A stretch of DNA of 63,186 nt, filler included, from Asterionella formosa (taxonomy: Eukaryota): the NCBI GenBank assembly GCA_002256025.1. It is 15 parts of 15 records of this genome, joined end to end, with 100 filler letters (N's around TTAATTAATTAA, not from the genome) between each part and the next. Parts side by side here need not be neighbours in the genome. Positions count along the whole stretch, not along the records: positions 1 to 16,494 come from NKIB01004854.1; 14 more parts are not named here. One strand, written 5' to 3'. Both the position numbers and the translations under genes were made by a program. Numbering within the stretch: position 1 is the first letter of the stretch; each line of letters opens with the position of its first letter. The notes below the pieces were generated by a model, which was not told the origin of the DNA, made no database searches, and saw nothing but the letters and a program-made list of their open reading frames with translations. Shown here in pieces: positions 1 to 47,649 of the stretch.

Positions 1-172
1 GAAGTTGAATGGTGATAGGGTTGGTGGTAGGTCGTTTGTTGATGACAGGTAAATCAACAGTGGCGTAATTGCCAGAACTACCAGAATCAGCAATGAGTGT
101 GACGGGGGGACAAGTGATGGGAGATAACTTTGTGTTAATAGTATTATCGGCAGCAACTTGCTCCCCTCCACA

Positions 173-1261
173 TCAAGCAAGTGGTGAAGGTGGCGGTGAA
201 ACACGGGGTGGCCGGGTAGGACGGGGACCATCACTGAACAGACGGACGCTGCCACCCAGACGTCGATCAAGGGTGGCATTGAGTTGATGGCCAGAAGCTG
301 GATGATTGCAAGTTGCACTGGTATGGTCAGGGTTTTTGGTAAGACCATGAGTCCAACAATAGCCTAATTGGACATTGTTGTAAGTGTATCCAGAAGGGAC
401 AGCACGAGCAGCGGCAGCAATAGCTGGCAATGGGGGAGGGCCACTGGTTTGAATGGCAGCATGGGCACCATGATAACCGGCAGTGGTGGCGGTGGCAAGG
501 CGCAATCGTTCCTTATCAGCATGCATGAAATGTGGGCAAAAATTAACCCATGTACGGTCCAGCTCAGCGCGATCACGCCAAGTTTGAATGCTATGCGAAT
601 ATACACCAGCCTGTTCTAAAGCAGAAAGAGTCAATCGCATGACAGTACTGTCAGAGAAAGGTTCTCCACCAGCATCAGCAATGGCACGAAGATGTTTGAT
701 GCGGATCCATAAATGCTCAATAGGTTCCTCTGGTGTCCAAGCATCGGCCAAGCGCATGCGATTGAGTTCCAAATCATCCGCACTCAATGTTGCATATGTA
801 GATTCTAAGTGAGCAAGTAAGGTCAGAACAGTGATGTCTGCATATCCAAATGTAGCATCTTCCAGAACGTTGTAGTAGGTTGGGTCAATGGCTGTTAGAA
901 TTTGTTGTCGGAGAATTTCACGGATTTGGGAGTAACGGCGGAATGCGTCAAGGGAGGTGTCAAAGAGACGGTTGGCAGCAGTGATTTGGGACTGTGTTGC
1001 AGTAGCACTGTGTGTCGGCTGGATGCCGGGATGTTCGGGCGGTACAAAGGGTTCACCGGCACGTAAGAGATAAGGAGCAGCAGCCATGACAATACCAAGG
1101 AAACCATTGGCACCACCACCACTGGTACAGTGGACAGAGCGAGCATTGGCAAAGAGTTCCTTGCGAAGGCGGGTTACAGTGAAGGCTGTAGGTTTGCCCT
1201 CGATCGGCGTCAAGAGCGGATGAGGGAAGGGGAAAACAGCGGAAACGATTGGAGTCGTCAT
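173..1261 (-). CDS. gag: Copia gag protein (362 aa)
   Basis: Intact ORF with motifs typical of diatom Copia gag; near-identical second copy at 43328-44203. Confidence 0.88.
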   Translation of the reverse strand: MTTPIVSAVFPFPHPLLTPIEGKPTAFTVTRLRKELFANARSVHCTSGGGANGFLGIVMAAAPYLLRAGEPFVPPEHPGIQPTHSATATQSQITAANRLFDTSLDAFRRYSQIREILRQQILTAIDPTYYNVLEDATFGYADITVLTLLAHLESTYATLSADDLELNRMRLADAWTPEEPIEHLWIRIKHLRAIADAGGEPFSDSTVMRLTLSALEQAGVYSHSIQTWRDRAELDRTWVNFCPHFMHADKERLRLATATTAGYHGAHAAIQTSGPPPLPAIAAAARAVPSGYTYNNVQLGYCWTHGLTKNPDHTSATCNHPASGHQLNATLDRRLGGSVRLFSDGPRPTRPPRVSPPPSPLA

Positions 1262-1408
1262 GGTGGAAGAAGGCCTGAGAGACAGGGACAGCGAACGGGC
1301 AAGCGGTGCTGGACGGTTGATTGTTGAGACCAGTGCTGGTTTGCACTGTCGACAAGAGCCGCAACTTCGCAGGTGCGGACAAGAGAGAAAGAACAGATAT
1401 TGTAGTTC

Positions 1409-1579
1409 TGTTGAGGGGAACCTTATCGTGAATAAAGGTGAACTACAATATTATGACTATTCTATTGCTGTTCCAAGTACATCGTTGTTAGCACTCATGC
1501 ATGTACCTAACTAATCTGGTGGCTGCGCCGGTATGGTTCGTGCGGCGCATGTATGGAGCATCATATGCATATATTAACA
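1409..1579 (-). repeat. 5' LTR (~171 bp)
   Basis: Minus strand begins TGTTAA and ends TCAACA (TGTT..AACA termini). Lies upstream of gag; host reading frame resumes right after 1580. Partner LTR is outside the window. Confidence 0.7.
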
Positions 1580-1580
1580 G

Positions 1581-3905
1581 AATATCGCCCCTAATTTTGT
1601 CGCCCCTACGCACCATCATGCTCAAATTGTAAATGAGCATGGTGTACAAGCAGAGTACGCAAGGAATGGACTCTGTCCTTATCATCCAGACATTCAGCTT
1701 CGTAAAAAGAATGTGATTGGAGTTGACGAGACTGTGCGAGACAGCTGCCCTAAATGCGATCGTCTGAATACCCAAGGGCCTACTTCTCCAGCGACTCCAA
1801 TGCCTCAGCAGTCTCCTTCTTTGCCAGCAATCCAAATTCAAACCACTTCAAGTTCGTGTCCGATTGCTGCAATTCTTTCAAATATGCAAATGAATGAACG
1901 GAATGCTGACATTCAAATAAAAGGTTGTTCAGAACTTTGTGACTTGGCTGCGAATAATGACAACAAGGTGACGATTGCTGCAGCAGGAGGTATCACTACG
2001 ATTCTGTCTGCAATGAAGGCTCATTCCTCAAATGCTAATGTACAACACTATGGTTGTGGAGCACTTATGAACTTGGCTGTTAATGACAAGAACAAGGTGA
2101 CGATTGTTGAAGCAGGAGGTATAACTACGATTCTGTCTGCAATGAAGACTCATTCCTCAAATGCTAATGTACAATACGAAGGTTGTGGAGCACTTCAGAA
2201 CTTGGCTTTGAGAAACGACAAGAACAAGGTGACGATTGTTGAAGCAGGAGGTATAACTACGATTCTGTCTGCAATGAAGACTCATTCCTCAAATGCTAAT
2301 GTACAATACTATGGTTGTGGAGCACTTTTTTACTTGGCTGTGAATGACAATAACAAGGTCACGATTGCTGATGCAGGAGGTATCACTACGATTCTGTCTG
2401 CAATGATGACTCATTCCTCCAATGATGATGTGCAACACTTGATGAAGACTAATTCCTCTAATGCTACTGTACAACAGTATGGTTGTAGAGCACTTGGGAC
2501 CTTGGCTACTACTAATAAAAGGATCAAGCTGATAATTGCCGATGCTGGTGGAGAAGATGTAATTAAATCTGCTATTCGAAATCACTCATCCAATGCTGGT
2601 GTCTCTGAAAAAGGTAATGAAGCACTTCGTATCTTTCAACCAGTCTCAACAACATCCAAGAGATCGCATCTTCCTTCCTTAACAACTCCAACACCAAGCA
2701 TTGGTAATTCAACTGATCTCATTTCTGAAGGTCAATCGAAAATGAAGGAAGCAATGTACAATGAGAATTCAAGACCAATTGAGCTTTCTGTTGAATTCAT
2801 TACTTATTGTACAAACAACTTTGATGAAGAGAGAAAACTTGGTCAAGGAGCTTTTGGTGCTGTCTACAAAGGCAAGGATAACAATCGGTATTTTGCTGTT
2901 AAACGCATTCGTTTCAATATTGCTGTTGAGAAAGATAAGGTGAAGGAAGTTACCAAGGGTTTTAAAAGAGAATTGCAGGTGAGCTCATTTGTGTATCAAA
3001 TATTGCATTTTGTTTCAAGTCTTTATGTTTCTCATTCCACTGTCATACTATTTCAGGCATTGAAGAGGTTCCGACACCCCAATATTGTAACTTTGTATGG
3101 CTATCACTTGTCCTCTGGTTCACCTAATCAATACCTTGTGTTTGAGTATGCATCCAAGGGTTCTCTTGATAAATTTTATGAGAATGAAGAAAGCAGAGCA
3201 ACTCTCTCAAGTGAGATCAGACTTCAAATCATGTTCGACATTATTCGTGCCATCCACTTCCTTCATACTGGTACAGAGGACAATCTTGGTCTGTTTCATC
3301 GTGATATCAAGTCAGCTAATATCTGCCTTGATCAGAACTATACTGCCAAGCTGATTGATTATGGTCTAGCCAAATTTGTTCTTGTAGATGACTCCAATGA
3401 AACCAGTGCAAATTCTTTTTCAGTTCAGATCACATCAAATTGTGGAGTGTTTGGGTCACGTGGCTACATATGTCCATGGTATTCTAGGGGAGGTAAAAAA
3501 TTTGAAGCATCATGTGATGTTTACTCATTTGGCATTGTCATGATTGAGCTTGTGACAGGCTGCCTTCAAAATGATAAGACAATGTTGGGAGATTTCTACG
3601 AACAATACTTCCCAGATGAATTTGAAGGAAACATTAATGAGGCATTGGAGTTGGCAATTCTAAAACTGGTAGAAGATTTTGATCCTCTAGCAAAGAATTG
3701 GGATGATGGAATTCTGGCCTCGGTGTGTACATTAGCCATTCGTTGCATTCAGAAAAATCGCAAAAAGAGGCCAACAACTATTAAATTGGTTGAAGAGTTG
3801 GCGTGTTTGGTTGAAGAGTTGGGTCAACTTGTAAGTGCAACAGATCATTATGTTGGATGTGAATCGTCACAATTGATAATTGCCTTAGACAAACATAAGG
3901 TTTAG
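1581..3905 (+). CDS. Zn-ribbon + armadillo-repeat + IRAK/Pelle(RLK)-like Ser/Thr kinase; 5'-truncated by LTR; one intron 2979-3056
   Basis: Frame open from 1581 (CPYHPDIQLRKK...CPKC motif). About five to six 43-44 aa ARM repeats. Kinase motifs GQGAFGAVYKG, AVK, HRDIKSAN, DYGLAK, DVYSFG. Removing the 78-nt GT..AG intron restores FKRELQ|ALKRFRHPNIV. Confidence 0.85.
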   Translation, partial: NIAPNFVAPTHHHAQIVNEHGVQAEYARNGLCPYHPDIQLRKKNVIGVDETVRDSCPKCDRLNTQGPTSPATPMPQQSPSLPAIQIQTTSSSCPIAAILSNMQMNERNADIQIKGCSELCDLAANNDNKVTIAAAGGITTILSAMKAHSSNANVQHYGCGALMNLAVNDKNKVTIVEAGGITTILSAMKTHSSNANVQYEGCGALQNLALRNDKNKVTIVEAGGITTILSAMKTHSSNANVQYYGCGALFYLAVNDNNKVTIADAGGITTILSAMMTHSSNDDVQHLMKTNSSNATVQQYGCRALGTLATTNKRIKLIIADAGGEDVIKSAIRNHSSNAGVSEKGNEALRIFQPVSTTSKRSHLPSLTTPTPSIGNSTDLISEGQSKMKEAMYNENSRPIELSVEFITYCTNNFDEERKLGQGAFGAVYKGKDNNRYFAVKRIRFNIAVEKDKVKEVTKGFKRELQVSSFVYQILHFVSSLYVSHSTVILFQALKRFRHPNIVTLYGYHLSSGSPNQYLVFEYASKGSLDKFYENEESRATLSSEIRLQIMFDIIRAIHFLHTGTEDNLGLFHRDIKSANICLDQNYTAKLIDYGLAKFVLVDDSNETSANSFSVQITSNCGVFGSRGYICPWYSRGGKKFEASCDVYSFGIVMIELVTGCLQNDKTMLGDFYEQYFPDEFEGNINEALELAILKLVEDFDPLAKNWDDGILASVCTLAIRCIQKNRKKRPTTIKLVEELACLVEELGQLVSATDHYVGCESSQLIIALDKHKV

Positions 3906-4072: not shown

Positions 4073-6169
4073 AGATGGAAACTGGTATGATAATGAATGT
4101 GTTATGGCTGGGTGCATGATCGAAGAACATATAGTAGCTCTAGTAGGCCTGGTACAAACCATTATTTCTAAAAATATAGCTAAATATTTTGTGCGATGAA
4201 TCTCTTGTTGTTACAACCATCACCATGTTGATTGAACTCGGTTGGTTCCATTTGCTTCCCTTCAGTGCCTTGTGTTTTGCGATATAGTATTAGAACCATG
4301 ATCATAGCGCTGATCGGAAACCAAACCGCAAAACAGATGACATCAAACTTTCACTTGTTTGGACGATATTTTTCTTTGGTGATGGCGGAGTCATCACTAC
4401 GTGGGTGCTGGATTCCGGCCGACCTCCTCATTCACTACATGAACCAAAAAAACAACATTGGAAGCAACATGCTATTGACTACGCAAACATTGATGACAGA
4501 CATGAACAAGTGCTACCCTATTGAATTGGATCATCAATTTACTGGATGGCTTGGCTCATTGCTGACATATTTTTTAAAATCTAATTTCAGATTCCAGATC
4601 AGAACCTTCATCAGTCGAACCGTCAACCGGACAGGCAGTCGGCAGTCGGCAGAGAAGGGTGTGTCGAACAGTCATCGATCCCCAGGTCTTCCGTTGAGTC
4701 ACACCCTCGTATTTGATTCAATTCTGATACCGGTAGGCGATAAAAGAATATAGCGTCGATGTGGTAGACAAAGGACAGCGGTGAGGCCGTGAGGCCGTCG
4801 ACAGAACCTCATGGTGTTTTAATTCAACAAGAACAGAAGTGTGTGTGATCTGGTCTGTAAGATATGCATACCACAACGGTACCTGGTACCAGGGTACTGT
4901 ACGGCAATTCGAATGTCGTCCTGACGCTCCCCGCTTTGGTACCGTACCTGGTACAATACAAGTGCAAGTACATACCGTCATGTACAGTACATTCCTGTGT
5001 ACTCTGTTCCTGGGTGGTACATACAAAAAATTCAAACCCCACTGTAATGAAACTTTTTACGACCGTAGTGAAAGCTAATGTACTACCGGTACCTGGTACC
5101 CTGGTAGTAGCAGTCAACTAGCACTGTGTACAAGGTACCAGGTACCTGGTACCAGTAATCTTGCGAAATAGAATGTGTATGGATGTATTACCGAAATATC
5201 TGATAGCTACTATAGGTGCTGATAATAAAATTGCTTACTGGCATGCATGTGTACACCGCCTCTTAATTTACAAGCAGAATCAAAGTGTTGAAGCCAAGGC
5301 ATATCCATCCTGATGCTCTATTGGAACAACTTGATGATGCTGGTGGCAACAAGTGCCAATGCTGAAGGAGGTCTTGGCATGACATCTGCTGCATTGGACT
5401 TGAGCCGCCAATTGAGTGGAATTGCTGAGGAGGTTGTGATTGCAGGAACAATTCATGTCGCTTGCTTTTGCACCTTGATTTTACAGTGGCTGCTATTGAT
5501 TTGAAATGCTGAATATGTAGAATGTAGAAACTCTGCTTATTTGATGGAGGAGAATTGTCATGAAGTTCCCCTGCTAGCTAGCTACTAATTCGAGTGGAAG
5601 GTAGCTATATTGAATGGCTGCCTGGTGGTGAACTTGTTACTATCCTTGCTTCTGAAAAGTCGACATTTGCATAAGGTTGTTGCAACTGACCGTGTTACTA
5701 TGTGTGTCCAAACATGTATAGGATGCATTGTTGACAACGAAAAAACAAAGCCAGTTTTTTCAGTGCCTTGATGTGCCACCTTGCTTGTTAGGCAGCATGC
5801 CACATAGAGAAGCATGATATGTATTTGCCACATTGCAAGTGATAACTTCAGAACAATGTTGGATAGATTGAGTTTATCATTTCCGCCTCTTTCTTCACAA
5901 AAAGTGAAGGCTTTATTCAGTGCCAATGATGAGCGATGCAATGCAAAACCCTTTTTGGAAAAACTTCGACAGGAAATTGGTGCCATCACCACAATTGATT
6001 CTGAAGAAAAAGAAAGCAATGATCAGCGATGCGGAGGACAAAACTTTGGCTTGCTTGTTGCTACATCGTCTCATGATTGTAGAATAATGAAAAATCTAGC
6101 TAGTAGTAGCTAGTATATATATTTTAGTGTTAATGATAGTCAATGTATTGTTATTTCCAGGAAACTTAA

Positions 6170-8580: not shown

Positions 8581-8785
8581 GTTGGTTCATTCCTATCAAC
8601 ATGGTCTAGATTTGTATTGCTTTATTCAGGAAGCCTTCTATAAATAGTGGTGTGTGGCTGGGGGCAACCATCTACCGGCGGTATTATGGTACCTGGTACC
8701 AGTACCATTCACTTGGTGGTTCCTGGTCCTCTGTGTACCAGGTACCGGTAGTGCATACAACTATATATATATAAATCTTACATAC

Positions 8786-12929: not shown

Positions 12930-13047
12930 TTGGCAGCACGAGTAAAAGGAGTTTTTTCAACACAAAAAACACTTTTCACTCGAGCAAGGAAAAAGTCGCT
13001 CGTCAACACAATAGACAACTTTCATTACATTCAAGAGAACATTGACA

Positions 13048-15087
13048 ATGCTAAGAGCATTTGGTCGAAAGAAGATAGAAACAGAATTTGAGAAATATGT
13101 CAAACGGTTGAAAGCGAATGATTCCAGTTTGACTACATTTGATCTCGATAAAAATATCATTGGTGTTGATGGAGCCAAGGCCATTGCAGAGGCACTCAAG
13201 GTCAATACTGTCTTGACTACACTTTATCTCGATAGTAATTCAATTGTCGTTGATGGAGCCAAGGCCATTGCAGTGGCTCTCAAGGTCAATACTTTCTTGA
13301 CTACACTTGATCTCGGAAGTAATTCAATTGCTCTTGACGGAGCCAAGGCCATTGCAGAGGCTCTCAAGGTCAAAAGTGTCTTGACTTCACTTAATCTCAG
13401 AGACAATTCAATTGGTGTTGACGGAGCCGAGGCCATTGCAGTGGCTCTCAAGGTCAATACTGTCTTGACTTCACTTAATCTCGGAAGTAATTCAATTGGT
13501 GTTGACGGAGCCGAGGCCATTGCAGAGGCTCTCAAGTTCAATACTGTCTTGACTTCACTTAATCTCGGAAGTAATTCAATTGGTGAAGAACTAGAAAATG
13601 AAATTCAAAAACAGCTTGATGACAAGAGGAATGATCAACCATCATTCAGGGGTGATTTTCAGACAAATGCACTCGTAGAGGAAATGATTGAAAAGGATAG
13701 AACAGGTCATCATATTACTGATTATGATGGTTTGCCAAAGGTTATTACAAATCAAAAAGTCTGTTGGCCATTCATTGAATGTAAGCATAAGGGTTGGGAA
13801 CCAAATCAGTCAAGAAGAATCATGTCATATTCAAAAGTGTGGGTAGATTCAAAATGTTGCAGTGAACCAACAGACATACACAAAGAAACATTAGTTGTTC
13901 TTTCAAGTCCCAACTTCAGCCAACCCTCACATATTCTTCTTAAGGCATATCGATCTGTGATGAATTTATCAATATCAAATGATTTTGTTGATACTGACAC
14001 CTTTCTCAGGTCGATTACCATGACCAGGTATGGCATATTGCTCTGCAATAGATCAATTCCAGAAAACCCTGGCAGATCTGGTATTGAAATGTTTTTTCCA
14101 AAATGGATCTCAAGATTTTGGAACAAAGGTATTGATAATCTTTACTGGCGACATGAATCCTTCAAAATAAATTCAAGAAACGGCAGTGAACGTGAAGCTG
14201 TCCTGTACTTCAAAATTGGGGCTTTATGCTACAAGATTCCATTTTGTAAATATTTGTATGGCCATGCTCTTATATATGGTACAGGTGGCACTAAGAAGGA
14301 TATTGTAATGGGAATGGGACTTCTGCATGAAGCAGGGAATGAGCTTTGTATTGCAGAAGCCTTCTTTGAACTAGGTGTCCTTTATGAGCATGGTGTGATG
14401 GGAAAAGATGAACAATGCATAGCCAAAGACTATGTGATGGCTCAAGGCTTTTATGAAGACTCGATAAAAGCTGCCTTTGAAAATATTCATGATGAAAATA
14501 AATCCGTTTGGATTCCACCAATTGGAATAATGAATCAACTGCTTCATGTTGACAGCGTACATTTGCAAGAAGATTCAGTACATAATGATGCAGGAATGCA
14601 TTATTCTTGGATCATTCTAGGTCATTCTTTCCTGTTTGCTACTGCAGCAACCCTTGCAAGCGGCTCTCAACCTTTTCACTACTCACTTCTACTGTTTTTT
14701 ATTCCCTTACTTGGCATTCTCCTGGCATATTATTCCTATTTAGATAGCTATTTTGCATTGGGAGTAATATCAAGAAACCAAGAAGATGTCGATTTAATGG
14801 TGCAAAGAAAATTTCATGCATACACACTTATCTTGGAACAAGCACAACATCATGGCAGCAACGATGATGATTTAGTTTTTTTATCCAATGAACAAAACCG
14901 TTGTATAAAAGAAAAAGAAGATGTCATTTGCAGATTTGTGAACCATCATATGTTGGCATATTGGCAAATTTTTATCTTTTTTTTTATAGGGTGCATCTGG
15001 GCTCTACTTCTTGTGAATGAGATTTATTCACGTTACTTTGAGTGCTCTTACTGGTTTTATACATGTAAGCTTCCTCCCTATGAGTAG
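13048..15087 (+). CDS. RI-like/NLRC3-like LRR + Sel1-like repeats + C-terminal 3-TM domain protein
   Basis: Single ORF from ATG 13048. Six 28-aa LRRs (LKVNTVLTSLNLGSNSIGVDGAKAIAEA). Sel1-like YGHALIYGTGG / FELGVLYEHG. Three hydrophobic helices at the C-terminus. Confidence 0.88.
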   Translation: MLRAFGRKKIETEFEKYVKRLKANDSSLTTFDLDKNIIGVDGAKAIAEALKVNTVLTTLYLDSNSIVVDGAKAIAVALKVNTFLTTLDLGSNSIALDGAKAIAEALKVKSVLTSLNLRDNSIGVDGAEAIAVALKVNTVLTSLNLGSNSIGVDGAEAIAEALKFNTVLTSLNLGSNSIGEELENEIQKQLDDKRNDQPSFRGDFQTNALVEEMIEKDRTGHHITDYDGLPKVITNQKVCWPFIECKHKGWEPNQSRRIMSYSKVWVDSKCCSEPTDIHKETLVVLSSPNFSQPSHILLKAYRSVMNLSISNDFVDTDTFLRSITMTRYGILLCNRSIPENPGRSGIEMFFPKWISRFWNKGIDNLYWRHESFKINSRNGSEREAVLYFKIGALCYKIPFCKYLYGHALIYGTGGTKKDIVMGMGLLHEAGNELCIAEAFFELGVLYEHGVMGKDEQCIAKDYVMAQGFYEDSIKAAFENIHDENKSVWIPPIGIMNQLLHVDSVHLQEDSVHNDAGMHYSWIILGHSFLFATAATLASGSQPFHYSLLLFFIPLLGILLAYYSYLDSYFALGVISRNQEDVDLMVQRKFHAYTLILEQAQHHGSNDDDLVFLSNEQNRCIKEKEDVICRFVNHHMLAYWQIFIFFFIGCIWALLLVNEIYSRYFECSYWFYTCKLPPYE

Positions 15088-16494: not shown

Positions 16495-16594
16495 NNNNNN
16501 NNNNNNNNNNNNNNNNNNNNNNNNNNNNNNNNNNNNNNTTAATTAATTAANNNNNNNNNNNNNNNNNNNNNNNNNNNNNNNNNNNNNNNNNNNN
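16495..16594. other. Artificial contig linker (first of 14)
   Basis: N44-TTAATTAATTAA-N44 (stops in all six frames); others start at 17623, 18750, 35332, 36459, 37586, 38713, 39840, 40974, 42101, 43228, 44354, 60935, 62061. Confidence 0.98.
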
Positions 16595-16789
16595 TAACTA
16601 GAAGTAGTAGTATTTGTTGAATATATGAGCTTATTTGTTAATCCTTGTGTGTAACTCGTTCTCCAAGTCGACACCAAAGTATACAATGAGGGTTAGTCGA
16701 GTTCTCTCATTATTGAGTTCTTATACATATATGATATAACACTAACCCTATATACATCTGTATTGATGCGCAAGATCGCTCACCTGGTA

Positions 16790-17468
16790 CCACCTAAAAA
16801 CTGCTTTGAACCTCTATCGAAATTTGTTACCACTTTGAACCACCACACGTAGAATAGCACGTTTTGTAACGAATTTCTGAGAGTTTACAAATCTGAAACG
16901 ATCCGTCTGTAGCTGAGCATGTATCGCTTCTCTTAGTATGAACGAGCTACACTGAACATTCATTTGTGTAATCAATATTTATACGTGAAAGTGTCGATCG
17001 ACCTTTTTTGGACAAATTAGCGGTTTACCACGACCTCGGAGTATACAGGCATATGTACACATTCATGAATTTGGTAAACCTTGTTATCATATATTTATTT
17101 AGATCGCACATTGATTTGTTCAGCCCCATAGTAGAAATCATACCAGGTGAACGTAGTATTGGAAATTGATCCCGAATATCATTAAGAAGCGCTGTAATCC
17201 GTCTTCCCTGTAGAATACTGGTTAATTCTACGGTATTGAGATATTTTAATTTACCGCTTTGAACCTCTATAATGGATAAACCCATCAATAGAAACAATCA
17301 TTTCTTCCGCTGTCGATGGAACCTGACTGAATCGTTTGTCCAATCATAATCCCCCACCTCTCGTGAATGACTGGAGCATCTAAGATGATTGAAATGAATA
17401 AATCAGTGTTTAGTCGTACTAATCGATCAAGCGCAGTGAAATAGAGGTTCAAGGCAGTTTTTAGGTGG
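16790..17468. mobile_element. MITE related to 11482-12519, TA target; a second element end starts directly at 17471
   Basis: TA|CCACCTAAAAACTGCTTTGAACCTCTAT ... ATAGAGGTTCAAGGCAGTTTTTAGGTGG|TA (28-bp TIR, 1 mismatch); shares GTTTAGTCG-ACTAATC subterminal motif with ~12459; then TA|CCACTAAAAAACTG. Confidence 0.85.
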
Positions 17469-18354
17469 TACCACTAAAAAACTGTAAGCCAACGTTATTT
17501 TACTCTATCTTTCGACTAAAAATATTTATGTAATTCAACGATCAAAACTTGACGCAAGTACAAAGCTTATGTTAGACAATGCTCTCTGCTATACTATTAA
17601 GTTATCAGTTTTGATTCTGTGTNNNNNNNNNNNNNNNNNNNNNNNNNNNNNNNNNNNNNNNNNNNNTTAATTAATTAANNNNNNNNNNNNNNNNNNNNNN
17701 NNNNNNNNNNNNNNNNNNNNNNGAATCAATTGTTTTTTAAACCCTAGCCTCGAGCAAGGTTTTCAGATTTAGGAACCTCACGTAAAACAACGTTCTATGT
17801 ACCAGGGGTACTGGTACCAGGTACTGTCACTCTACCGGGTACCGGTACGTACATACATATTGCATTGATGTTGATATAGCTGCCTGTGTACCGGTTGACT
17901 ACAATGTACCGGTAAGTAAGATACCAATAAATCATTATGAAGAACAACTGCACACACCAGGATGACTGTGCAGGTGATGCTTGCTTTATTTTTATTTTTT
18001 GAATATATGAAATGCGCGCCATTTATGATACTTGGCTAGTGACAGGACGACTGCCTTATGGACATCATACAAAGTGTACACGACTATGGCACATGACTAG
18101 CTCGAGCCGAAGAAAGATTCCTTCAATTCAAACAATGATTTTCGGAATTGTGAATGCGAATCTTCGTGTAGGTCTAGATTCGTAATGACTACCGGTACAG
18201 TATTAACCAGGTAACAGGTACCTGGTAGCCGATACGTATGGACACAGACAGGATTTACGATGTTCACAGTTTATATCCGGCGAGTATGCAGCTGGACCTT
18301 CTGTCCATACTACCGGTAACTATGATACATTAAGCGTCCCTTGTCCATGGTTAG

Positions 18355-18645
18355 GTACTGGTACCTGGTACCAGTACTGTTACCAGGAGGACAGTGTGCA
18401 GTACCAGGGTACTACCGTGGTGCAGCCAAACAGCCTATCAATCATACTTCCTGGTACCTAGTGCCTGGTACCGGTAACTACGATTGTTGCTCACCAACAC
18501 CAGAGACTGGCTGAGGTAATACCGGTACCGAATATTGGTACCGGTACCAGGGTACCAGGTACCAGGTTAAGACCTGGTACCTGGTACTACCTGGTCTCAA
18601 TACCAGCACCTGTGAGTACCTGGTACCTGGTACCAGCTACCGGTA
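18355..18645. repeat. GGTACC(A/T) / TACCGGTA low-complexity array
   Basis: Dense GGTACCA/GGTACCT heptamers; similar tracts at 4875-5155, 33640-33720, 34735-35010, 60795-60860. Confidence 0.85.
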
Positions 18646-19279
18646 CATTGTTATCCGGCAGCCGTGCTTTTTGGCTGCCGCTTGTTTTCCCATGGCTGAT
18701 TTTAGCTACCGGTATGCACATGTACTGTATGTACACTGTACATCATACANNNNNNNNNNNNNNNNNNNNNNNNNNNNNNNNNNNNNNNNNNNNTTAATTA
18801 ATTAANNNNNNNNNNNNNNNNNNNNNNNNNNNNNNNNNNNNNNNNNNNNCGGAGACATGCAATGCTCAACGATGCTCAACAAGTACCAACGGTGCTTTAT
18901 TTCCAATCTGGCAGGCTATTGTAATCTCTACAATCAACAATGACTTAATTATGTGTCTACAACATCAACTACTACTTCTACGTGTGCTGAATTCTACAGT
19001 GTGAATCTTCCTCTTGCATGTGTTATTCTTTGCCAGTTCAGATCAAAGAAATATGTCGGAGCGGAAAAAATAATAAGTGAATCGGAATTGGCGACTCTTT
19101 CGTTCATTATATGGTGAAAGCAGCATAATATTGCGGCAGAGCAGCATAATTTCGCTTTTAAACTGTTGCGATGGCTAGTTGGTCAACATATATTGTCACG
19201 AACACACATAATTATTGGTGTGATCACATAATTATTCGATAAGTGAAATAAATTTTTGTTTAACCCGAATAAATTAGGG

Positions 19280-34450: not shown

Positions 34451-35060
34451 CTCCACCTTGCTTCTGTCGAGTTTTGTTGATGTTTCCTTTTAAAATATTT
34501 TTATCCACTATTTAAGGTATCTGGTACCACCAGGATTCAGTTCATATTTTCCCTGGAGGCAACAAATTAATTATGATGATGAGTGAGAGTGATCATGATA
34601 GGGTGAGGGAGAGGTCTTCATAAACTATAAACCATACCTCCTCTGCTCCTGCTTGTGGTGGCTGGTACTGCTACACAGTATGAATTATTCCCTTTCTTAC
34701 TCATAGTGGCAGTATTATTTTACGAACATAATTACTGGTACCTGTATATGGTACCAGTTCCTACGATACCGGTACGGTAAGAGAAGTACGGTACGAATAT
34801 GGCGCTGTGCATGGTACCAGTACTGGTACCAGCCACTCCGAGTAATCATAAACATGCATTCCGTCACGTACATGTATCTACGTACCTTGGTACCTGGTAC
34901 CAGGTACCAGGTCCAGCCTGATCATGAGCGAGCAGATCATCATACCGGTACCTGGTACCTGGTACCTGGTACCTGGTACTCGTTCTCATAATAGGGTACC
35001 TGGTACCTCATACTCCTAGTTACTAATGAACATACCGTAGCGATATATGTTGGTATCATA

Positions 35061-35331: not shown

Positions 35332-35665
35332 NNNNNNNNNNNNNNNNNNNNNNNNNNNNNNNNNNNNNNNNNNNNTTAATTAATTAANNNNNNNNNNNNN
35401 NNNNNNNNNNNNNNNNNNNNNNNNNNNNNNNGTATTATACACTATATATCGATGCAAAATCTTATTCACATTTTCGTTTAAAAATACTGTCAATGAGGAA
35501 TATATTGAGTCCCGGTATTATAAACACGACAAGAAAAGGATAGGCGAGCACTAGTCCTAGCTTCTTGTGATTCTTCGTGAAGCTTATATTAAGGACGAAG
35601 CTGACATCTTGTTTTCTGTGATTCCCATTTATGATCTGGAGAAATCACAGGAATAATAGTTGACA

Positions 35666-36458
35666 ATGGGACTGCTGGGAAAGTTTCGTCAATCACCATT
35701 GTTTCGCACGAAACAACGCAAGCACGCCGGCGGACATGATGTTTTAACAGTTCTCACATTTGATGCAGCAGAGAAAGAATCGTCAATCATTTTGAGCACA
35801 GATGAATTTGATCTTCTCTTCGCGGAGCGCAACGTGAAGGGATTGGTGCCTCTTTGTCAAACACGTGAGGAAGAATCTGCCATGAGGAATAGTGAGGATG
35901 CCTTGCTTCTTGCTCAAGTTCGTTCGCTCAAGAAAACGACATTCCCGGCGCTTGATAAAAAGGTGTATCACGTTAACGCTCAAAAGGATATCACATCAGA
36001 GCACGAGCCACACCAATTTTCACATTGGCATCAGGATGATAGCAGCGAAAGCGACGACGTAGAAGGGCTTCGTACATTGAGAGCAGAAATTGCGAATACT
36101 ACGCTATCGATGGTGGAGGCGGGCGTGGCTATGGCGTGTGATAGTAAAATCAACACAAGAACTTCTGAAACCTTGTTGCATCGCAAGGGGATTCCCTTTT
36201 CCAGGAATCTAGGTCATAAATTTATTGAAGAACTTCCGACCTTGTATGAAGATGAAGCTGGCCAGTCAACGTCCAATGGGTCAGATAATGGAGAGACAAC
36301 ATCCAAATTCAAACTGGTTCAAAAAGAAGGTGAAAGTAACATTCGGGCTAGATGGGATTACGCTCTGGAATGCATGTCGAGAATGGGACAGTGCGTCGAA
36401 GACACGACTTCCCGAAGCGCCTTTATAGCGTCGCCGTCGTTCATAATGCCACCTACAC
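35666..36458 (+). CDS. Hypothetical protein, 3'-partial (contig end)
   Basis: ~264 open codons from ATG 35666 to the linker; no recognisable domain. Confidence 0.6.
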
Positions 36459-36558
36459 NNNNNNNNNNNNNNNNNNNNNNNNNNNNNNNNNNNNNNNNNN
36501 NNTTAATTAATTAANNNNNNNNNNNNNNNNNNNNNNNNNNNNNNNNNNNNNNNNNNNN

Positions 36559-37585
36559 GTGCAGAGGTCAATGTCGAAATTATTTCTACTACCGATGCAC
36601 ATGTTAGTCTCCTCAAGACCATTTTTGATTTTAATGCCATTAAAGGCCTGCTCGATCGTGATGATTTCTCGATGGTCTATGACTGTATGCATGGGGTCAA
36701 TGGTCCTTACGCCAAGGCTGTTTTTGTAGGAGAGCTCGGTCAGTCTGAGGACACATGCCTCAATGCCGTCCCTAAGGATGATTTCAATGGAGGACATGCT
36801 GACCCCAATCTCACCTATGCTAAGGAACTCGTCAAATTGCTAGGACTTGATCGAACGGGCGCCAAAATTGACGTTGGTGACGCCAAAGTTCCCTCGTTCG
36901 GCGCTGCTGCCGATGGTGACGCTGACCGCAACATGATTCTCGGGTCTCAGTTTTTTGTCACACCCTCAGATTCCCTTGCGATTATTGCAGCCTATGCTGA
37001 TGTCATCCCATTTTTCCGCACCCAGGGTGGTTTGAAAGGTGTCGCTCGTTCCATGCCTACCAGCGGTGCCGTTGACCTCGTTGCCAAAGACAAAAATTTT
37101 GAACTTTTTGAGACCCCCACTGGTTGGAAGTACTTTGGAAATTTGATGGACTCGAAGGCGCTTTACGGCGGAACCAATTACACTCCGTTCATTTGTGGTG
37201 AAGAGTCCTTCGGAACCGGTTCTGACCACGTGCGTGAGAAGGATGGTATCTGGGCTGTTTTGGCGTGGCTTTCAATCCTTGCGTCTGTGAACACAACAGG
37301 TGAGCCTTTAGTGTCGGTCGAAGACGTCGTTAAGGCGCACTGGGGACGTTATGGTCGCAACTACTACTGTAGATGGGACTTTGAGGGTGTGGATAAAGTT
37401 GCAGCCACCGCTATGATGGATAAGATGCGCAATGATTCTTCTGTCAATACCGGAAGGGCTGTGGGAAAGTATGTTATCGACACTGCTGACGATTTCACCT
37501 ACGTCGACCCAGTTGATGGATCTATTTCTAAGAAGCAAGGCATTCGTTTCTTGATGACTGATGGTTCCCGTGTGGTCTTCCGCCT
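36559..37585 (+). CDS. PGM: Phosphoglucomutase, internal fragment (haplotype A)
   Basis: Frame open across the whole contig; DFNGGHADPNL, metal loop DGDADRN, FETPTGWKYF, CGEESFG, REKDG. Confidence 0.95.
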
Positions 37586-38812
37586 NNNNNNNNNNNNNNN
37601 NNNNNNNNNNNNNNNNNNNNNNNNNNNNNTTAATTAATTAANNNNNNNNNNNNNNNNNNNNNNNNNNNNNNNNNNNNNNNNNNNNGTCTAATTCAGATAA
37701 ACGAGAGACGGAGGAGCAATCTTGTCATGTCTCATTTGGAGAGGAACGAACGCGATCCAACTTTAGTGTTGAACAAAATGTTCTGAAAATGTGGAGTCAA
37801 AGTACCTACCAGGTACTGTTTCCACCAACTACCGGCACCGGTAATATATACTGATTCCATGTTCATGCAGATTTCTTTAACATTTTTATGTACATGTTAA
37901 CCGGTATTATTTTTATGCAAAAGAATTTTATTTTTGCAATACCATAATAACGGCATCCTTAAACGTACCCCCGAGTTTCGCCCTCCCTGCTTCAACACAA
38001 TTATCGTAGACATTCATGTATCTAAGTACCGGTACATGTGCTTCCGTTGAGTCTTTTCAACGGCAATTGGAAGTTTGTATATAAATCTAAGTGCATACAT
38101 TCAAACGTGAATATACATATCAATTCTTCAACATAATGTGTATGTATATCTTCACATGGTTAGAAAGCAAGACTCTGAAGGCCAGCACGGTATACTCGTC
38201 GTAAACAAAACATGTTGCGCGCGTACGACATTTCAAATTTTTGACTGGCGGTAAGTGCCGGTACCGGTATGCGTTCTAATAGGCGGCCGTGCTGGCTGGT
38301 TATGAGTGTGCGCGCTGTTCGTGGTCGTATTTTTTTCTTGCTGCTTGCTTCGTCGTCTCTTACAGTCAGTCAGTCAGTCAGTCATCCAACGCTCATTGTT
38401 GGAATCGTATTGGTTTGCGCACACTGTTTGTTCTACCGCCCAGCACGACCAGGAATCATCAAGGGAACGCACGTACGAAAGGGGAACCATGGAGCACTGA
38501 CGAGAGCAGACGAAGCAAAGATGGGCCATTCAACTATATTTTATGTAAAAATAGAAGCAATGATGGAAATCATCATACATAGGAGTTCCTAAATCAATGA
38601 TTATTTTGGGAGTATAATGCATACCGGTAGTATTTAAGGATATGTGCCTATGTCATTTGATTACCGGTATACTCCAGTAGACTACTGTACTCTACGGAAT
38701 ATTTGTTTATCANNNNNNNNNNNNNNNNNNNNNNNNNNNNNNNNNNNNNNNNNNNNTTAATTAATTAANNNNNNNNNNNNNNNNNNNNNNNNNNNNNNNN
38801 NNNNNNNNNNNN

Positions 38813-39839
38813 GTGCAGAGGTCAATGTCGAAATTATTTCTACTACCGATGCACATGTTAGTCTCCTCAAGACCATTTTTGATTTTAATGCCATTAAAGG
38901 CCTGCTCGATCGTGATGATTTCTCGATGGTCTATGACTGCATGCATGGGGTCAATGGTCCTTATGCCAAGGCTGTTTTTGTAGGAGAGCTCGGTCAGTCT
39001 GAGGACACCTGCCTCAATGCCATCCCTAAGGATGATTTCAATGGAGGACATGCTGACCCCAATCTCACATATGCTAAGGAACTCGTCAAATTGCTAGGAC
39101 TTGATCGAACGGGCGCTAAAATTGACGTTGGTGACGCCAAAGTTCCCTCGTTCGGCGCTGCTGCCGATGGTGATGCTGACCGCAACATGATTCTCGGATC
39201 TCAGTTTTTTGTCACCCCCTCAGATTCCCTTGCGATTATTGCAGCCTATGCTGATGTCATCCCATTTTTCCGTGCCCAGGGCGGTTTGAAAGGTGTCGCT
39301 CGTTCCATGCCTACCAGCGGTGCCGTTGATCTCGTTGCCAAAGACAAAAATTTTGAGCTTTTTGAGACCCCCACTGGTTGGAAGTACTTTGGAAATTTGA
39401 TGGACTCGAAGGCGCTGTACGGCGGAACCAATTACACTCCGTTCATTTGTGGTGAAGAGTCCTTCGGAACCGGTTCTGACCACGTGCGTGAGAAGGATGG
39501 TATCTGGGCTGTTTTGGCGTGGCTTTCGATCCTTGCGTCTGTGAACACGACAGGTGAGCCTTTAGTGTCGGTCGAAGACGTCGTTAAGACGCACTGGGGA
39601 CGTTATGGTCGCAACTACTACTGTAGATGGGACTTTGAGGGTGTGGATAAAGTTGCAGCCACCGCTATGATGGATAAGATGCGCAATGATTCTTCTGTCA
39701 ATACCGGAAGGACTGTGGGAAAGTATGTTATCGACACTGCTGACGATTTCACCTACGTCGACCCAGTTGATGGATCTATTTCTAAGAAGCAAGGCATTCG
39801 TTTCTTGATGACTGATGGTTCCCGTGTGGTCTTCCGCCT
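38813..39839 (+). CDS. PGM: Phosphoglucomutase, internal fragment (haplotype B)
   Basis: Same boundaries and length as 36559-37585; differs only by scattered substitutions. Confidence 0.95.
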
Positions 39840-41074
39840 NNNNNNNNNNNNNNNNNNNNNNNNNNNNNNNNNNNNNNNNNNNNTTAATTAATTAANNNNN
39901 NNNNNNNNNNNNNNNNNNNNNNNNNNNNNNNNNNNNNNNCTATTTTGTGACACTATGATTTTCGCTGTTTTCATTCTGACGTTTTTGATGTATTTTACCA
40001 GTATGCCAATGAATTGCTGAAGGCAATTCCCGCTCCAGCTACCGTCTTCCCATTCGGGTACTTCTTAAGTAATTTTTAGGCTCTAAGTAATTTCTTAAGT
40101 AATTTTTTTTAAAGGGCAATATGGGGCACATCGAATTTTTCGGCAATAAAATTGCCGATTTTAGCATGACAACCAGAATAACGGTAATATGCATAGAATT
40201 GGTACAACAAGCGTAAAACACACGAGAATGATTGTAACATGAAACATCAATGAAAATTGAACATGATGTTTGGAGCAACCAAAGTATGAAATGCGATGTA
40301 ATAAGTAGCATCAAATGAGAAATAGAAAAAATTGTTTTGGGTTAGAAATGAAATTAAAAAATAAGAGTTCCAATGGAGAAGTATGCATTGTGAATCATTG
40401 TAGTACTTACACAGGCCACATTGACTTTCCATCAACACAAAATCGAAGACCGAAAGAAGAATAAAAAAAGCTGAACCCAATTTAGACCTGCATCGTTATC
40501 TAGCGTAAATTTTCGGGTTGCTGCAACCATGCGCATCGCTCTAGCTAGTAGCAGCCTGACACCAGTAGCAGTATTTCCGCCACAGTCATTCCTCTCTGCC
40601 CACCAAACAAGCAACCCTGATCATTCCATTCTGAGCAAGAAGCATGATCGCCACGCTGCTCCAGCACTATTGACTCTCTCTAGCTGAGTATTCATGTAGC
40701 TTCTGATACGAACTTGTAGTAGAAATGTAGCAAAGCGTGTTAGTACAAGAAAAGCATTGCTTGGTGGCAATATTGACATGATTGTCAATGACTATTCAAA
40801 TCAACAAATACGATCAACAACGGCACAATACCACATCTTCAATGAGTAGTCATTGATAAATGCATTGGTTCTTATGTAGATATGTACAATTGAAACAAAA
40901 CGACAGTGCGTAACAACAAACAACGATGGAAGCAATCAAAACAAACCACGGAAGCAATCAAATCGGAAAGTCGNNNNNNNNNNNNNNNNNNNNNNNNNNN
41001 NNNNNNNNNNNNNNNNNTTAATTAATTAANNNNNNNNNNNNNNNNNNNNNNNNNNNNNNNNNNNNNNNNNNNNA

Positions 41075-42100
41075 GGGTCGTTCTTATCATTTTTTTTCGT
41101 GTATCACGGAATTTGAATTTTTTTGAAAATGTATCAGCAACGGTAACTCGATTTGAACTGAATTTCATTCATTCCAAAAGTGTCACTGTATCACTAATTT
41201 GTGATCACATTGTATCATGGAGTAAAATGAATCTTCAACGGCAACTGGCTGGCGAAGATCATGTGTATATCCCTCCGGAATATAATGATGGTCTTGATAT
41301 CAAGCAACAACAAAATATAATTACCGGGAAACTAAATATAATATTAAAAACACACATTTGCATGAATCATGTCGTCGCCATTTGATTTACTTGATGATAA
41401 TGACGATGACAGTAGTGATCTTGATTTCTTCTTCCTCTGTCATTTAGCTAAGGAAGCAGAGGAAAAAGAACACTCATCCAAACGACAAAGGCGACGCTGT
41501 AAACGGCAGCTTCAGTCATCTGAACGACGACGACAACGAAGGCACAAGTGGCACCACGAAAGAATCTCCTGGCAATCACATGTCGAGAAACTCAATCACG
41601 AGATTGCTTTCGAGAAGACATACAGAATGTCACACAGAGCATTCAAAAAACTCACCTCCATGCTGGAAATTCAGATTGCAGGGAATTATTCCAAATGTGG
41701 CACTTCTGAGCCCATAATTCCCGAAATTGTGGTAGCCATTAAGGAAATAGTGGAGTCCTTCTTGCCATTCCTGTACCCTGACACTTTAAATCTCACGCAA
41801 ATTTTTCGAAGTACCTTGACAGATATATGTTTTATGTCGATTCCTTTTATATGAATCAATCCCAGCCCACTTTCATCCAGAATAAAGTCATCTGGTACTA
41901 TGAGCGAGTTGACGAACTCATCAATATTGGCTAGCCAACCGGGAAAGGGTTTCCTCTTTTCAGGGGGACCAAGAATCTCGTTAATGTCAAGAAGTGTACC
42001 AGTAGTAGTTGCAGGTACGACATTTTCGGATGGATCCATCTCGTCAATGTCGAGTGTGTCAGCAGTTGGAGGTATTTTCATTTCAGGTGGAGGAACCATC
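41075..42100. mobile_element. Internally deleted PIF/Harbinger element: transposase N-terminus (+, from 41369) fused head-on to remnant of the convergent accessory ORF (-, from 42099)
   Basis: FEKTYRMSHRAFKKL and IIPEIVVAI are Harbinger transposase N-terminal motifs; similarity stops near 41740 where the opposite-strand ORF (LRKICVRFKVSGYRN) takes over; GGGTCGTTC terminus. Confidence 0.7.
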
Positions 42101-42549
42101 NNNNNNNNNNNNNNNNNNNNNNNNNNNNNNNNNNNNNNNNNNNNTTAATTAATTAANNNNNNNNNNNNNNNNNNNNNNNNNNNNNNNNNNNNNNNNNNNN
42201 TTGTGGTGTCTAATGTCATCCATCTGAGATCAAAGTTTTACGGTTGTACACATCACATGAAGAACTCACACTTACCGGTAAAAAAGCTCCCTCTTCCCAG
42301 TTTTCATGTTATGTAGGTAATTACCGGTACTAGCTAGGTAAATGTACTACTAGCCAGTGGTAGGCAACCCAATTTTTTTACGTGATTATTATTACTCAAA
42401 ATCAACACTGGTGAAATTATGTCTACTGATGAGGATGGTACCAGGTAGTATTGTTTGCCAAATATGTGCTGAACAAGGTCCATTATTTTAGCTACCTGTT
42501 ATTCTTATTTTTCTCTCGCCAACACAGCACTACAACGACAGTAAATATC

Positions 42550-42996
42550 ATGGATCTGTGTGACAATAACGACGAGGACAAATGTCAATTCTGTGGTAAA
42601 GGTCCTTTTAAATCAATTCGTGGTCATCACAGACACAGCCCCTCGTGTGGGCAACAAGATATGATTCAATCTCAGATTCAAGCATCGCAGACATCATCAA
42701 TGGTAGCGACTTCTCGAAGAGATGGACGACACCACTCTCAAGACCCCCTTGCAAAATTCCTGAAACAATCGCCAGCAGCCATTGATTTCGTTCAAACAGT
42801 TTGTTTTGATGCCGATGACTATGATAATGGTTTATTCCTTGATAGTTTAGTAGATCATGATGCTGCTGCTATTAATGGTCCAATCATTCAGAACGGAGAA
42901 ATAAACGACATTATAAACCCTACCAATCCGATTTTGCGCACAAAGTATATCCGTTTCGTCCACTACAGCATGACAATCTCGCCAATCAACCCGTAA
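42550..42996 (+). CDS. Zn-finger-bearing ORF, possibly N-terminal remnant of a (Plavaka-like) transposase
   Basis: CQFCGKGPFKSIRGHHRHSPSC followed by acidic low-complexity region; no catalytic domain visible. Confidence 0.35.
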   Translation: MDLCDNNDEDKCQFCGKGPFKSIRGHHRHSPSCGQQDMIQSQIQASQTSSMVATSRRDGRHHSQDPLAKFLKQSPAAIDFVQTVCFDADDYDNGLFLDSLVDHDAAAINGPIIQNGEINDIINPTNPILRTKYIRFVHYSMTISPINP

Positions 42997-43327
42997 ACAA
43001 ACACATTCTACCGGTACTTGTTCTCGTTGAAATTTTCAATTCTCACATGATACTACATCTACTATTTCGATTCATCATAGAAGGAGATACAAAAATGTGC
43101 GTAACAGACTACTGTCCACATAGCTATAGTTATAGAATGATTCTGATTAGAACGCATTTCATTTTCATATCGCTCGCTCGTTTCTGCATTTGGCATATTG
43201 TACTTGAATTAACTATTGAACTTGTCCNNNNNNNNNNNNNNNNNNNNNNNNNNNNNNNNNNNNNNNNNNNNTTAATTAATTAANNNNNNNNNNNNNNNNN
43301 NNNNNNNNNNNNNNNNNNNNNNNNNNN

Positions 43328-44353
43328 TTTTTACCGCCCGAACATCCCGGCATCCAGCCGCCACACAGTGCTACTGCAACACAGTCCCAAATCACTGCTG
43401 CCAACCGTCTTTTTGACACCTCCCTTGACGCATTCCGCCGTTACTCCCAAATCCGTGAAATTCTCCGCCAACAAATTCTCACAGCCATTGACCCAACTTT
43501 CTACAACGTTCTGGAAGATGCTACATTTGGATATGCAGACATCACTGTTCTGACCTTGCTTGCTCACTTAGAATCTACATATGCAACATTGAGTGCGGAT
43601 GATTTAGAACTCAATCGCATGCGCTTGGCCAATGCTTGGACACCAGAGGAATCTATTGAACATTTATGGATCCGCATCAAACATCTTTGTGCCATTGCCG
43701 ATGCTGGTGGGGAACCTTTCTCTGACAGTACTGTCATGCGATTGACTCTTTCTGCTTTAGAACAGGCTGGTGTATATTCTCATAGCATTGAAACTTGGCG
43801 TTATCGCGCTGAGATGGACCGTATATGGATTAATTTTTGCCCGCATTTCATGCATGCTGATAAGGAACGATTCCGCCTTGCCACCGCCACCACTGCCGGT
43901 TATCATGGTGCCCATGCTGCCATTCAAACCAGTGGCCCTCCCCCATTGCCAGGTATTGCTGCAGCTGCTTGTGCTGTCCCTTCTGGATACACTTACAACA
44001 ATGTTCAATTAGGCTATTGTTGGACTCATGGTCTTACCAAAAACCCTGACCATACCAGTGAAACTTGCAATCATCCAGCTTCTGGCCATCAACTCAATGC
44101 CACCCTTGATCGACGTCTGGGTGGCAGCGTTCGTATTTTCAGTGATGGTACCCGTCCTACTCGGCCACCCCGTGTTTCACCGCCACCTTCACCACTTGCT
44201 TGATGTGGAGGGGAGCAAGTTGCTGTTGATAATACTATTAACACAAACTTATCTCCCATCACTTGTCCCTCCGTCACACTCATTGCTGATTCTGGTAGTT
44301 CTGGCAATTATGCAACTGTTGATTTACCTGTCATCAACAAATGACCTACCACC
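43328..44353 (+). pseudogene. gag: Second, decayed copy of the Copia gag-protease region
   Basis: Near-identical to reverse complement of 24-1050; same TGA at 44201-44203 then LIADSG in frame; extra CGA>TGA at 44342. Confidence 0.92.
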
Positions 44354-47372: not shown

Positions 47373-47388
47373 TGTAACAGAAAAGAAA

Positions 47389-47590
47389 AGAAGGAAGTAT
47401 TCAGAAGGAAAGAAAGAAAGGGCTAGTCGAAGAAGACTACCGATGGAAGTAATGTAAATGAAAGAAGGAAGTATTCAGAAAGAATGGAAGGGCCAGTCGA
47501 AGAAGACCACCAATAGAAGTAAAGTAAATGAGAGAAGGAAGTAATCAGAAAGAAAGGAAGGGCTAGTCAAAGAAGACTACCGATAAAATT
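47389..47590. repeat. ~70-bp tandem repeat x3 in the Copia leader
   Basis: GAAGGAAGTA-TCAGAA...GGGC-AGTC-AAGAAGAC-ACC-AT repeated three times. Confidence 0.85.
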
Positions 47591-47649
47591 AAAATAAAGG
47601 AGAAGAATAAAAGAAATATGATGTTGGAAGGTTTGGGCTCATAACCACT

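Follow-up and report, generated by a model that had tools for sequence, protein, structure and literature searches.

A candidate self-priming site at the LTR boundary of a Ty1/copia-type retrotransposon from aquatic metagenomes, with arms that covary among relatives

The window, by which we mean the whole 63,186-nt stretch of DNA that was analysed, is composed of pieces (many of about 1 kb; for example 16495–18849, 35332–44453 and 60935–62160) joined by linkers of 44 N, TTAATTAATTAA and another 44 N. It holds 28 N runs, and the neighbourhood of features across linkers is artificial. At its beginning, on the minus strand, lies the 5′ portion of an LTR retrotransposon, whose order on that strand is ...GTCATA ATATTGTAGTTC ACCTTTATTCACGATAAGGTTCCCCTCAACA GAACTACAATAT CTGTTC.... 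The parts of this element, its second copy and three other coding regions of the window are as follows.

1409–1579, minus strand: 5′ LTR, 171 bp, TGTTAA...TCAACA (TG...CA), its ends placed by the start of homology and by contig break points
1451–1455, minus strand: CATAA motif, putative initiator and 5′ end of the genomic RNA
1440–1451, minus strand: first arm of an inverted repeat (IR1), ATATTGTAGTTC, the proposed self-primer; exact partner of IR2, covarying with it in relatives
1409–1439, minus strand: loop of 31 nt between IR1 and IR2, the proposed rest of R plus U5
1397–1408, minus strand: second arm (IR2), GAACTACAATAT, the candidate primer-binding site (PBS), 0 nt from the LTR end and covarying with IR1
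1262–1396, minus strand: untranslated leader
173–1261, minus strand: gag ORF, 362 amino acids, stop codon TGA, without a Pfam family
1–172, minus strand: start of pol, 57 codons with the protease motif DSG, in frame past the gag TGA and cut by the start of the window
43328–44353, plus strand: second partial copy, gag only, 96.1% identical over 1026 nt by blastn, on a 1-kb piece between N linkers
51370–52203, minus strand: Mutator-like transposase ORF
13042–15087, plus strand: leucine-rich-repeat protein with 84-nt tandem repeats
55191–59465, minus strand: PT-repeat protein, 1424 amino acids, with 48-nt repeats

The cluster closest to the gag of the window is P0001, at 99% identity and with 124 members, and 54 gag homologues were found in all. 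An alignment of 10 gag sequences, searched against metagenome contigs, yielded 33 loci, and L001 and L003 hold the full element, consisting of gag, an in-frame TGA and then pol (1377 amino acids in L001). Across the 12 loci examined, gag and pol invariably share one frame and are split by a single stop codon, which may be TGA, TAG or TAA (173–175 on the minus strand of the window; 1289–1291 in L001), and in 11 of these 12 a G-rich motif (GGGGAG, GGGGAC, GGGAAG or CGGGAG) lies some 6–9 nt past the gag stop. The combination of a single in-frame stop with a downstream G-rich motif suggests that Gag-Pol may be made by programmed stop-codon readthrough.

Elsewhere in the window, a second, unrelated LTR retroelement occupies 44454–48010 on the minus strand. 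It has a gag ORF (46155–47372) without a Pfam family and a protease motif, DTGA, followed by an LHWHFRLGH-type motif, read by eye. Just past its putative LTR end, TGGTTATGAGCCC (47647–47635) holds the complement of a CAU anticodon loop and hence resembles a half-tRNA primer site, putatively for initiator tRNA-Met, as in some Copia lineages. The motif GGTTATGAGCCC, attributed to this other Copia element in the initial annotation, is found there at 47646–47635 on the minus strand. Short arrays of a palindromic GGTACC(A/T)-type 7-mer at 5088–5146, 8688–8746, 18464–18634, 34896–34979 and 60826–60857 are the source of most perfect inverted repeats in the window. The element with which we are concerned is flanked by an ARM-repeat/protein-kinase ORF (1713–3905, plus strand), and over the 5′ end of this ORF, at 1598–1727, the summed depth of the poly(A) metatranscriptome X19 reaches about 270,000, counted over short contigs of at least 90% likeness; a possible source of this peak is a gene-family motif that is both conserved and strongly expressed.

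That the element belongs to Ty1/copia, as had been stated at the outset, is supported by the order of its domains and by the type of its reverse transcriptase. Specifically, in the pol of L001 the DSG motif at about residue 29 is followed by integrase-like residues D276, D341 and E373 (read by eye), by a match to SH3_retrovirus at 441–497 (E 1.2e-5, under the gathering score) and by RVT_2 at 914–1030, with VVDD at about residue 973; integrase precedes reverse transcriptase, the PR-INT-RT-RH order by which Ty1/copia elements are recognised. All six of the family pol proteins scanned match RVT_2, although only L022, at 36.8 bits, clears the gathering score of 31.6 bits, and the remaining five score 20.9–26.8 bits. 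The nearest ESM Atlas clusters all carry RVT_2, and one of them is named Ty1/Copia (scores 0.95–0.99); a PDB sequence search with pol gave no match. Membership in the Tf1/sushi group of Ty3/gypsy chromoviruses was considered and rejected, as integrase lies before reverse transcriptase, the reverse transcriptase is of the RVT_2 type and there is no Chromo match.

The position of the LTR ends is of particular importance to what follows. At the nucleotide level, L002, L003 and L017 (86% identical) are homologous to the window from 1579 onwards, and upstream of this point there are three distinct flanks (in the window, L003 and L017) as well as, in collapsed contigs, the polypurine tract GGTGAGGGTG. 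When assembled Logan contigs of four public runs (X15, X17, X8 and X19) were aligned to 1000–1750, divergence at 1579 was seen in one contig of X15, five of X17 (plus one at 1580) and one of X8; past this position the X15 and X8 contigs enter the polypurine tract and the X17 contigs enter mixed sequence (consensus agreement 0.54). At the other end, four X17 contigs with differing flanks (consensus agreement 0.6) and one X8 contig diverge at 1409, and two X19 pieces start exactly there. With TG at 1579–1578, CA at 1410–1409 and GGTGAGGGTG directly upstream of the LTR in internal contexts, the LTR is 1579–1409, 171 bp in length, and the boundary that had been placed at 1409 is borne out by 3′-LTR or solo-LTR junction contigs that break at this base. 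None of the insertions is represented with both of its flanks, between which a target-site duplication would be expected. The mapping applies to the window's own lineage; the LTR end of other lineages was placed by homology (TCAAYA|GA) with the L009 group left out, and no 3′-LTR/flank junctions of those lineages were found among the 33 loci.

Several further properties of the contigs deserve mention. Isolated loose ends at 1370, 1476, 1509 and 1510 resemble variant or indel copies; the ends at 1409 and 1579 are seen again from run to run, but these are not. Summed contig depth is raised over 1390–1467 in X17 and 1390–1441 in X19, a rise that we leave uninterpreted because the sum spans related families at 90% likeness or more and the block is the conserved one. 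Among the 33 loci, the long contigs are for the most part pol-LTR-gag assemblies that have collapsed and whose two ends are identical. In L001, L002, L007, L012 and L031, the terminal overlaps measure 91–739 nt and are 100% identical (98.9% in L012), in the order pol-LTR-gag, and such contigs represent either real circles with one LTR or places where the assembly graph collapsed into a one-LTR circle.

Directly at the mapped LTR end lies the inverted repeat. On the minus strand, GAACTACAATAT at 1408–1397 is the exact reverse complement of ATATTGTAGTTC at 1451–1440, as the initial annotation had claimed and as both direct reading and a pattern search confirm; likewise, the claim that this LTR is not followed by a TGG-type site holds, in that no TGG occurs within 20 nt after 1409. 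The two arms form a 12-bp stem with a 31-nt loop (1439–1409), and the stem cannot be extended in either direction, since 1452 A stands opposite 1396 C and 1439 A opposite 1409 A. The minimum-energy RNA fold of 1455–1262 contains this stem together with a smaller hairpin in its loop and has a z-score of −3.55, none of 200 shuffles being as stable. Over 1200–1700, Rfam finds no family and no tRNA-like RNA, with one miRNA match at chance level (E 1.6), and neither the window nor the 33 loci yielded a tRNA gene. In simulation, perfect inverted repeats of at least 12 bp with a loop of 3–70 nt arise 0.455 times per window, and 28% of 200 simulated windows have at least one; a lone 12-bp repeat in 63 kb is therefore not rare by chance, and the weight of the argument rests on its position and on the relatives. 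In this regard, a 10-bp stem in the 330 nt upstream of gag arises in 3 of 300 mononucleotide shuffles, as against stems of 10–14 bp in 10 of 10 lineage representatives.

Comparison among relatives reveals that the pairing is kept while the sequence drifts. In 26 of 29 sequences (28 loci and the window), no perfect inverted repeat within the 330 nt upstream of gag is longer than the homologous one; the repeat of L021 carries one mismatch, and L016 and L018 start inside theirs. Four loci (L008, L019, L020 and L025) are without the region, and L031, which was read separately, represents a tenth lineage with the arms TTAACCAGCTC/GAGCTGGTTAA. The ten lineages span gag identities down to about 33%. 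Stem lengths across the relatives are 9–14 bp, and loops are 31–32 nt in most, 28 nt in L023, 41 nt in L022 and 20–21 nt in the L009 group. Examples of arm pairs from other lineages are CGTCTAGTTC/GAACTAGACG, TTTATCTAGCTC/GAGCTAGATAAA, TATTCTAGCTC/GAGCTAGAATA, ATTTACGTAGTTC/GAACTACGTAAAT, ACTTATATAGCTC/GAGCTATATAAGT, TTAGTCAGTTC/GAACTGACTAA and AATTTAGTCAAGTA/TACTTGACTAAATT. IR2 thus occurs in nine versions (GAACTACAATAT, GAACTAGACG, GAGCTAGATAAA, GAGCTAGAATA, GAACTACGTAAAT, GAACTGACTAA, GAGCTATATAAGT, GAGCTGGTTAA and TACTTGACTAAATT), none of which starts with TGG and each of which matches its own LTR. A single host tRNA cannot explain nine differing sites that each match their own LTR, and this makes a tRNA primer unlikely.

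Several lines of comparative evidence bear on whether the two arms change together. In alignment A6, which comprises 20 sequences (18 distinct), 9 of the 14 stem pairs show changes on both sides, and 85.7% of cells are paired compared with a shuffled mean of 67.6%, the observed score being reached by none of 500 shuffles. When the partners are slid against one another in the same alignment, 23.7–37.2% of cells are paired, and within the ten inner pairs 179 of 180 cells are paired, leaving one unpaired. Alignment A5 agrees with A6 on covariation. Because the shuffle control takes no account of how the sequences are related, it overstates significance; the slid-partner controls and the distinct pair types are the fairer measure. 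Both A5 and A6 were made from arms-only extracts anchored on the best inverted repeat, which leans them towards structure (MAFFT, given the L009 group and 24-nt flanks, misregistered the 3′ arm), whereas A4, with its 24-nt flanks, is free of this register bias in 14 of its 16 rows. On A4, RNAalifold returned the same 10-bp stem as the sole consensus structure, with 6 of 10 pairs compensated. Furthermore, L027 and L029 have a G:U wobble (U:G) where their sisters have C:G, which suggests that the pairing takes place in RNA. Compensatory change in family members had been put forward as a check on the original observation; run on the ten lineages, it finds the complementarity kept. An exact scan with the conserved 22-mer of the loop gave 0 matches in viral_contigs and 0 in genome_contigs.

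Other conserved features near the repeat are also informative. CATAA is invariant in 20 of 20 aligned relatives, and conservation between lineages starts abruptly at this motif, the alignment columns upstream of it being unconserved (A3 and A4); likewise, the complementarity never runs 5′ of CAT|AA in any lineage. We read this abrupt onset of conservation, coinciding with the limit of pairing, as marking the likely start of the genomic RNA at or just after CATAA (about 1452–1451). Within the loop, the 5-bp hairpin (ACCTT, 1439–1435, with AAGGT, 1424–1420) is present in most lineages and is 90.7% paired over 15 distinct sequences, with both-sided change in only one of its five pairs. A different hairpin, formed by AACAGA (1412–1407) and TCTGTT (1397–1392), had been suggested as a competitor that could sequester the site. 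It is indeed present in the window but is not conserved, as 6 of 12 lineage representatives have no equivalent of at least 5 bp; we reject it as a conserved feature, and it is probably incidental.

Considering the conserved, covarying arms together with the LTR end at 1409, we think it probable (roughly 0.8) that this Ty1/copia-type LTR retrotransposon starts its minus-strand synthesis by Tf1-like self-priming, and the comparisons support the initial annotation in having predicted this from sequence. The genomic RNA would start at or just after the invariant CATAA, at about 1452–1451, and its first 12 nt or so (IR1, 1451–1440) would fold back over the 31-nt R-U5 loop to pair with IR2 (1408–1397). 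By analogy with Tf1, the RNase H of the element would then cut after IR1, and the freed 3′ end would be extended through 1409–1439, so that the strong-stop DNA would be very short, at about 31 nt. The standard model has the primer copied during plus-strand strong-stop synthesis. If this model applies, the PBS would be re-templated from IR1 in each cycle, and this would help to explain why the arms remain near-perfectly complementary despite the drift of their sequences. The geometry of the site counts as well: minus-strand synthesis sets the end of U5, and with the LTR ending at 1409 and IR2 beginning at 1408 without a spacer, a primer of any kind must anneal at IR2. The passages on primer sites in Neumann 2019 (PMC6317226) predict a self-primer where at least 10 bp are complementary to the 5′ LTR and lie 0–5 bp past it; here there are 12 bp at a distance of 0 bp.

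Two observations weigh on the other side. One RNA-library contig (X15 record 7, 1261 nt) runs unbroken through pol-PPT-LTR-PBS-gag near 1451, and it could be a transcript that reads through, library DNA, or the result of an assembly that collapsed across R. In addition, R and U5 together would measure just 31 nt after the primer (20–21 nt in the L009 group and 41 nt in L022), and this leaves very little homology for the first strand transfer.

It is also worth considering other explanations for these data. We regard it as unlikely that the stem is a conserved RNA structure with some other role, such as packaging or dimerisation, or control of translation or of a poly(A) site, or that IR1 of the 3′ LTR, then part of U3, pairs over a long range with the 5′ PBS, with transcription starting downstream of IR1. 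The AT-rich CATAAT(T/A)T can be read as a TATA-like element and not an initiator, and retroviruses have U5-leader stems that surround the PBS. Likewise, the fungal Copia element GalEa has a hairpin, conserved at the PBS position, to which the passages describing it in PMC5445492 assign no known role. However, the 3′ arm of the stem starts at the first base past the mapped LTR end, which is the defining position of a PBS, and no alternative conserved PBS is present downstream, nor can the loop hold one, because it sits inside the LTR.

Less probable again is that a host RNA, whether a piece of a tRNA (such as a 5′ or internal stretch) or some other small RNA, primes at IR2 and that the hairpin only regulates access to it. 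Half-tRNA priming is common in Ty1/copia, and the neighbouring retroelement of the window has a half-tRNA-like site of its own. Against this, the nine IR2 sequences found across lineages are each matched by their own LTR, a host primer gives IR1 no reason to covary, and the site has no TGG and, by Rfam over 1200–1700, neither a tRNA-like nor a known RNA. Finally, although single 12-bp repeats do turn up in more than a quarter of simulated windows, the notion that the repeat is a product of chance or that the LTR boundary is wrong is refuted by the junction contigs that map both LTR ends, by the covariation in A6, kept with compensatory changes in 10 lineages, by the RNAalifold consensus and by the 3 in 300 shuffles that reach 10 bp.

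Self-priming at IR2 thus remains the reading that we favour, and it has several consequences. It predicts that the RNA starts at CATAA, that strong-stop cDNA comprises about 31 nt plus the primer, and that mutations in the primer are inherited by the PBS. For the annotation of LTR elements, tools that depend on a tRNA-type PBS would mislabel the whole family as having no PBS. The stretch is present in 20 of the 24 public sequencing runs listed, 18 of them with half or more of the sampled words. The runs belong to 16 studies, chiefly metagenomes of fresh water, lakes, estuaries and the sea, and include six RNA libraries, in which detection signifies presence and is not proof of transcription. 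The host is a widespread aquatic eukaryote, and the ORFs of its element are intact.

One can also ask how old this mode of priming might be. It is possible, though we hold the idea only tentatively and think it more doubtful than otherwise, that self-priming is the shared ancient state of an entire deep clade of aquatic-protist Copia elements (the 10 lineages), with an R-U5 of 20–41 nt and a PBS that is continuously re-templated. If true, these R-U5 segments would be among the shortest strong-stop templates proposed, and the clade, together with the plant TAR lineage and the Tf1/sushi group, would speak for hairpin self-priming being old and perhaps ancestral, and against rare convergence. An old, possibly ancestral role for hairpin self-priming in the start of LTR-retroelement reverse transcription is a speculation already found in PMC3601003.

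It is informative to examine the element in light of known systems that depart from priming by a full-length tRNA end. Within aquatic protists, the diatom CoDi elements are, like the family described here, divergent Copia-like elements with weak Pfam matches; Maumus et al. 2009 (PMC2806351), who treat CoDi, make no mention in their main text of primer binding, tRNA, priming or hairpins. A full-text literature search, outside whose coverage most subscription journals lie, gave no link of self-priming to protist or algal Copia elements.

Half-tRNA-primed Copia elements provide a second comparison, and Drosophila copia is one of them. In the passages of Neumann 2019 (PMC6317226) on such primers, a half tRNA-Met is given for Osser, Bryco and Gymco-II and a half tRNA-Ile for Bianca. 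Elements such as Osser, Bryco and Bianca belong to the same superfamily as the window element and are also primed in a non-canonical way, but their PBS matches an internal part of a host tRNA and is constant within a host, whereas the PBS of the window family varies and matches its own LTR.

A third comparison is with GalEa, a Copia element described as having no tRNA-type PBS and a conserved hairpin at the expected PBS position in the pertinent passages of Donnart et al. 2017 (PMC5445492). According to these passages, both 9-bp arms lie downstream of the LTR, the authors found no complementary sequence in the LTR, and the first arm forms a palindrome together with the LTR's last A, with a conserved A/A mismatch. 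In the window element, one arm lies inside the LTR (1451–1440), the arms are not palindromic and the pairing is perfect, and for these reasons we rejected its identity with the Conserved Hairpin Site of GalEa.

The elements in which self-priming is established, Tf1 and the Tf1/sushi group, are of the gypsy type, and the original proposal that a Copia element might prime itself was reportedly made by Capy in 2005. To our knowledge, experimental proof exists for Tf1 only, and what we know of in Copia are sequence-based predictions in plants. The initial annotation knew of no description of self-priming in Ty1/copia, yet those parts of Neumann 2019 (PMC6317226) that deal with the plant TAR lineage give it as predicted there, Houba and Osr-1 included. 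TAR elements are Ty1/copia like the window element, and their self-primer is predicted by the same standard of complementarity to the 5′ LTR, according to the same parts of that paper (PMC6317226); their hosts are land plants, whereas the window family comes from aquatic metagenomes. Hence, self-priming in Copia is not unprecedented, and the window element adds a well-supported member from a protist clade.

The closest mechanistic parallel is nonetheless Tf1 itself. In the passages of PMC7175516 on its priming, the initial 11 bases of the Tf1 RNA anneal to the PBS, and cleavage by RNase H falls between bases 11 and 12. In Tf1 and Tf2 of S. pombe and in the Tf1/sushi group, as in the window element, the PBS directly follows the 5′ LTR and has its complement in a stretch inside it (11 nt in Tf1; 10–14 nt here), and Tf1 and the window element share an extra small stem between primer and PBS and probably also the lack of tRNA complementarity. 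In contrast, the Tf1/sushi elements are Ty3/gypsy, and the window element has the PR-INT-RT-RH order, an RVT_2 and a loop of just 31 nt; its sequence therefore supports an element that would work like Tf1 while lying outside the Tf1/sushi group. Likewise, the RNA 5′ end and the cleavage have been demonstrated experimentally for Tf1, whereas for the window element we infer them from its sequence and from the Tf1 analogy. What sets this family apart is the strength of the comparative evidence for a Copia self-primer, namely many compensatory changes that arose independently, G:U wobbles and an LTR/PBS junction mapped to the base, together with a very short putative R-U5.
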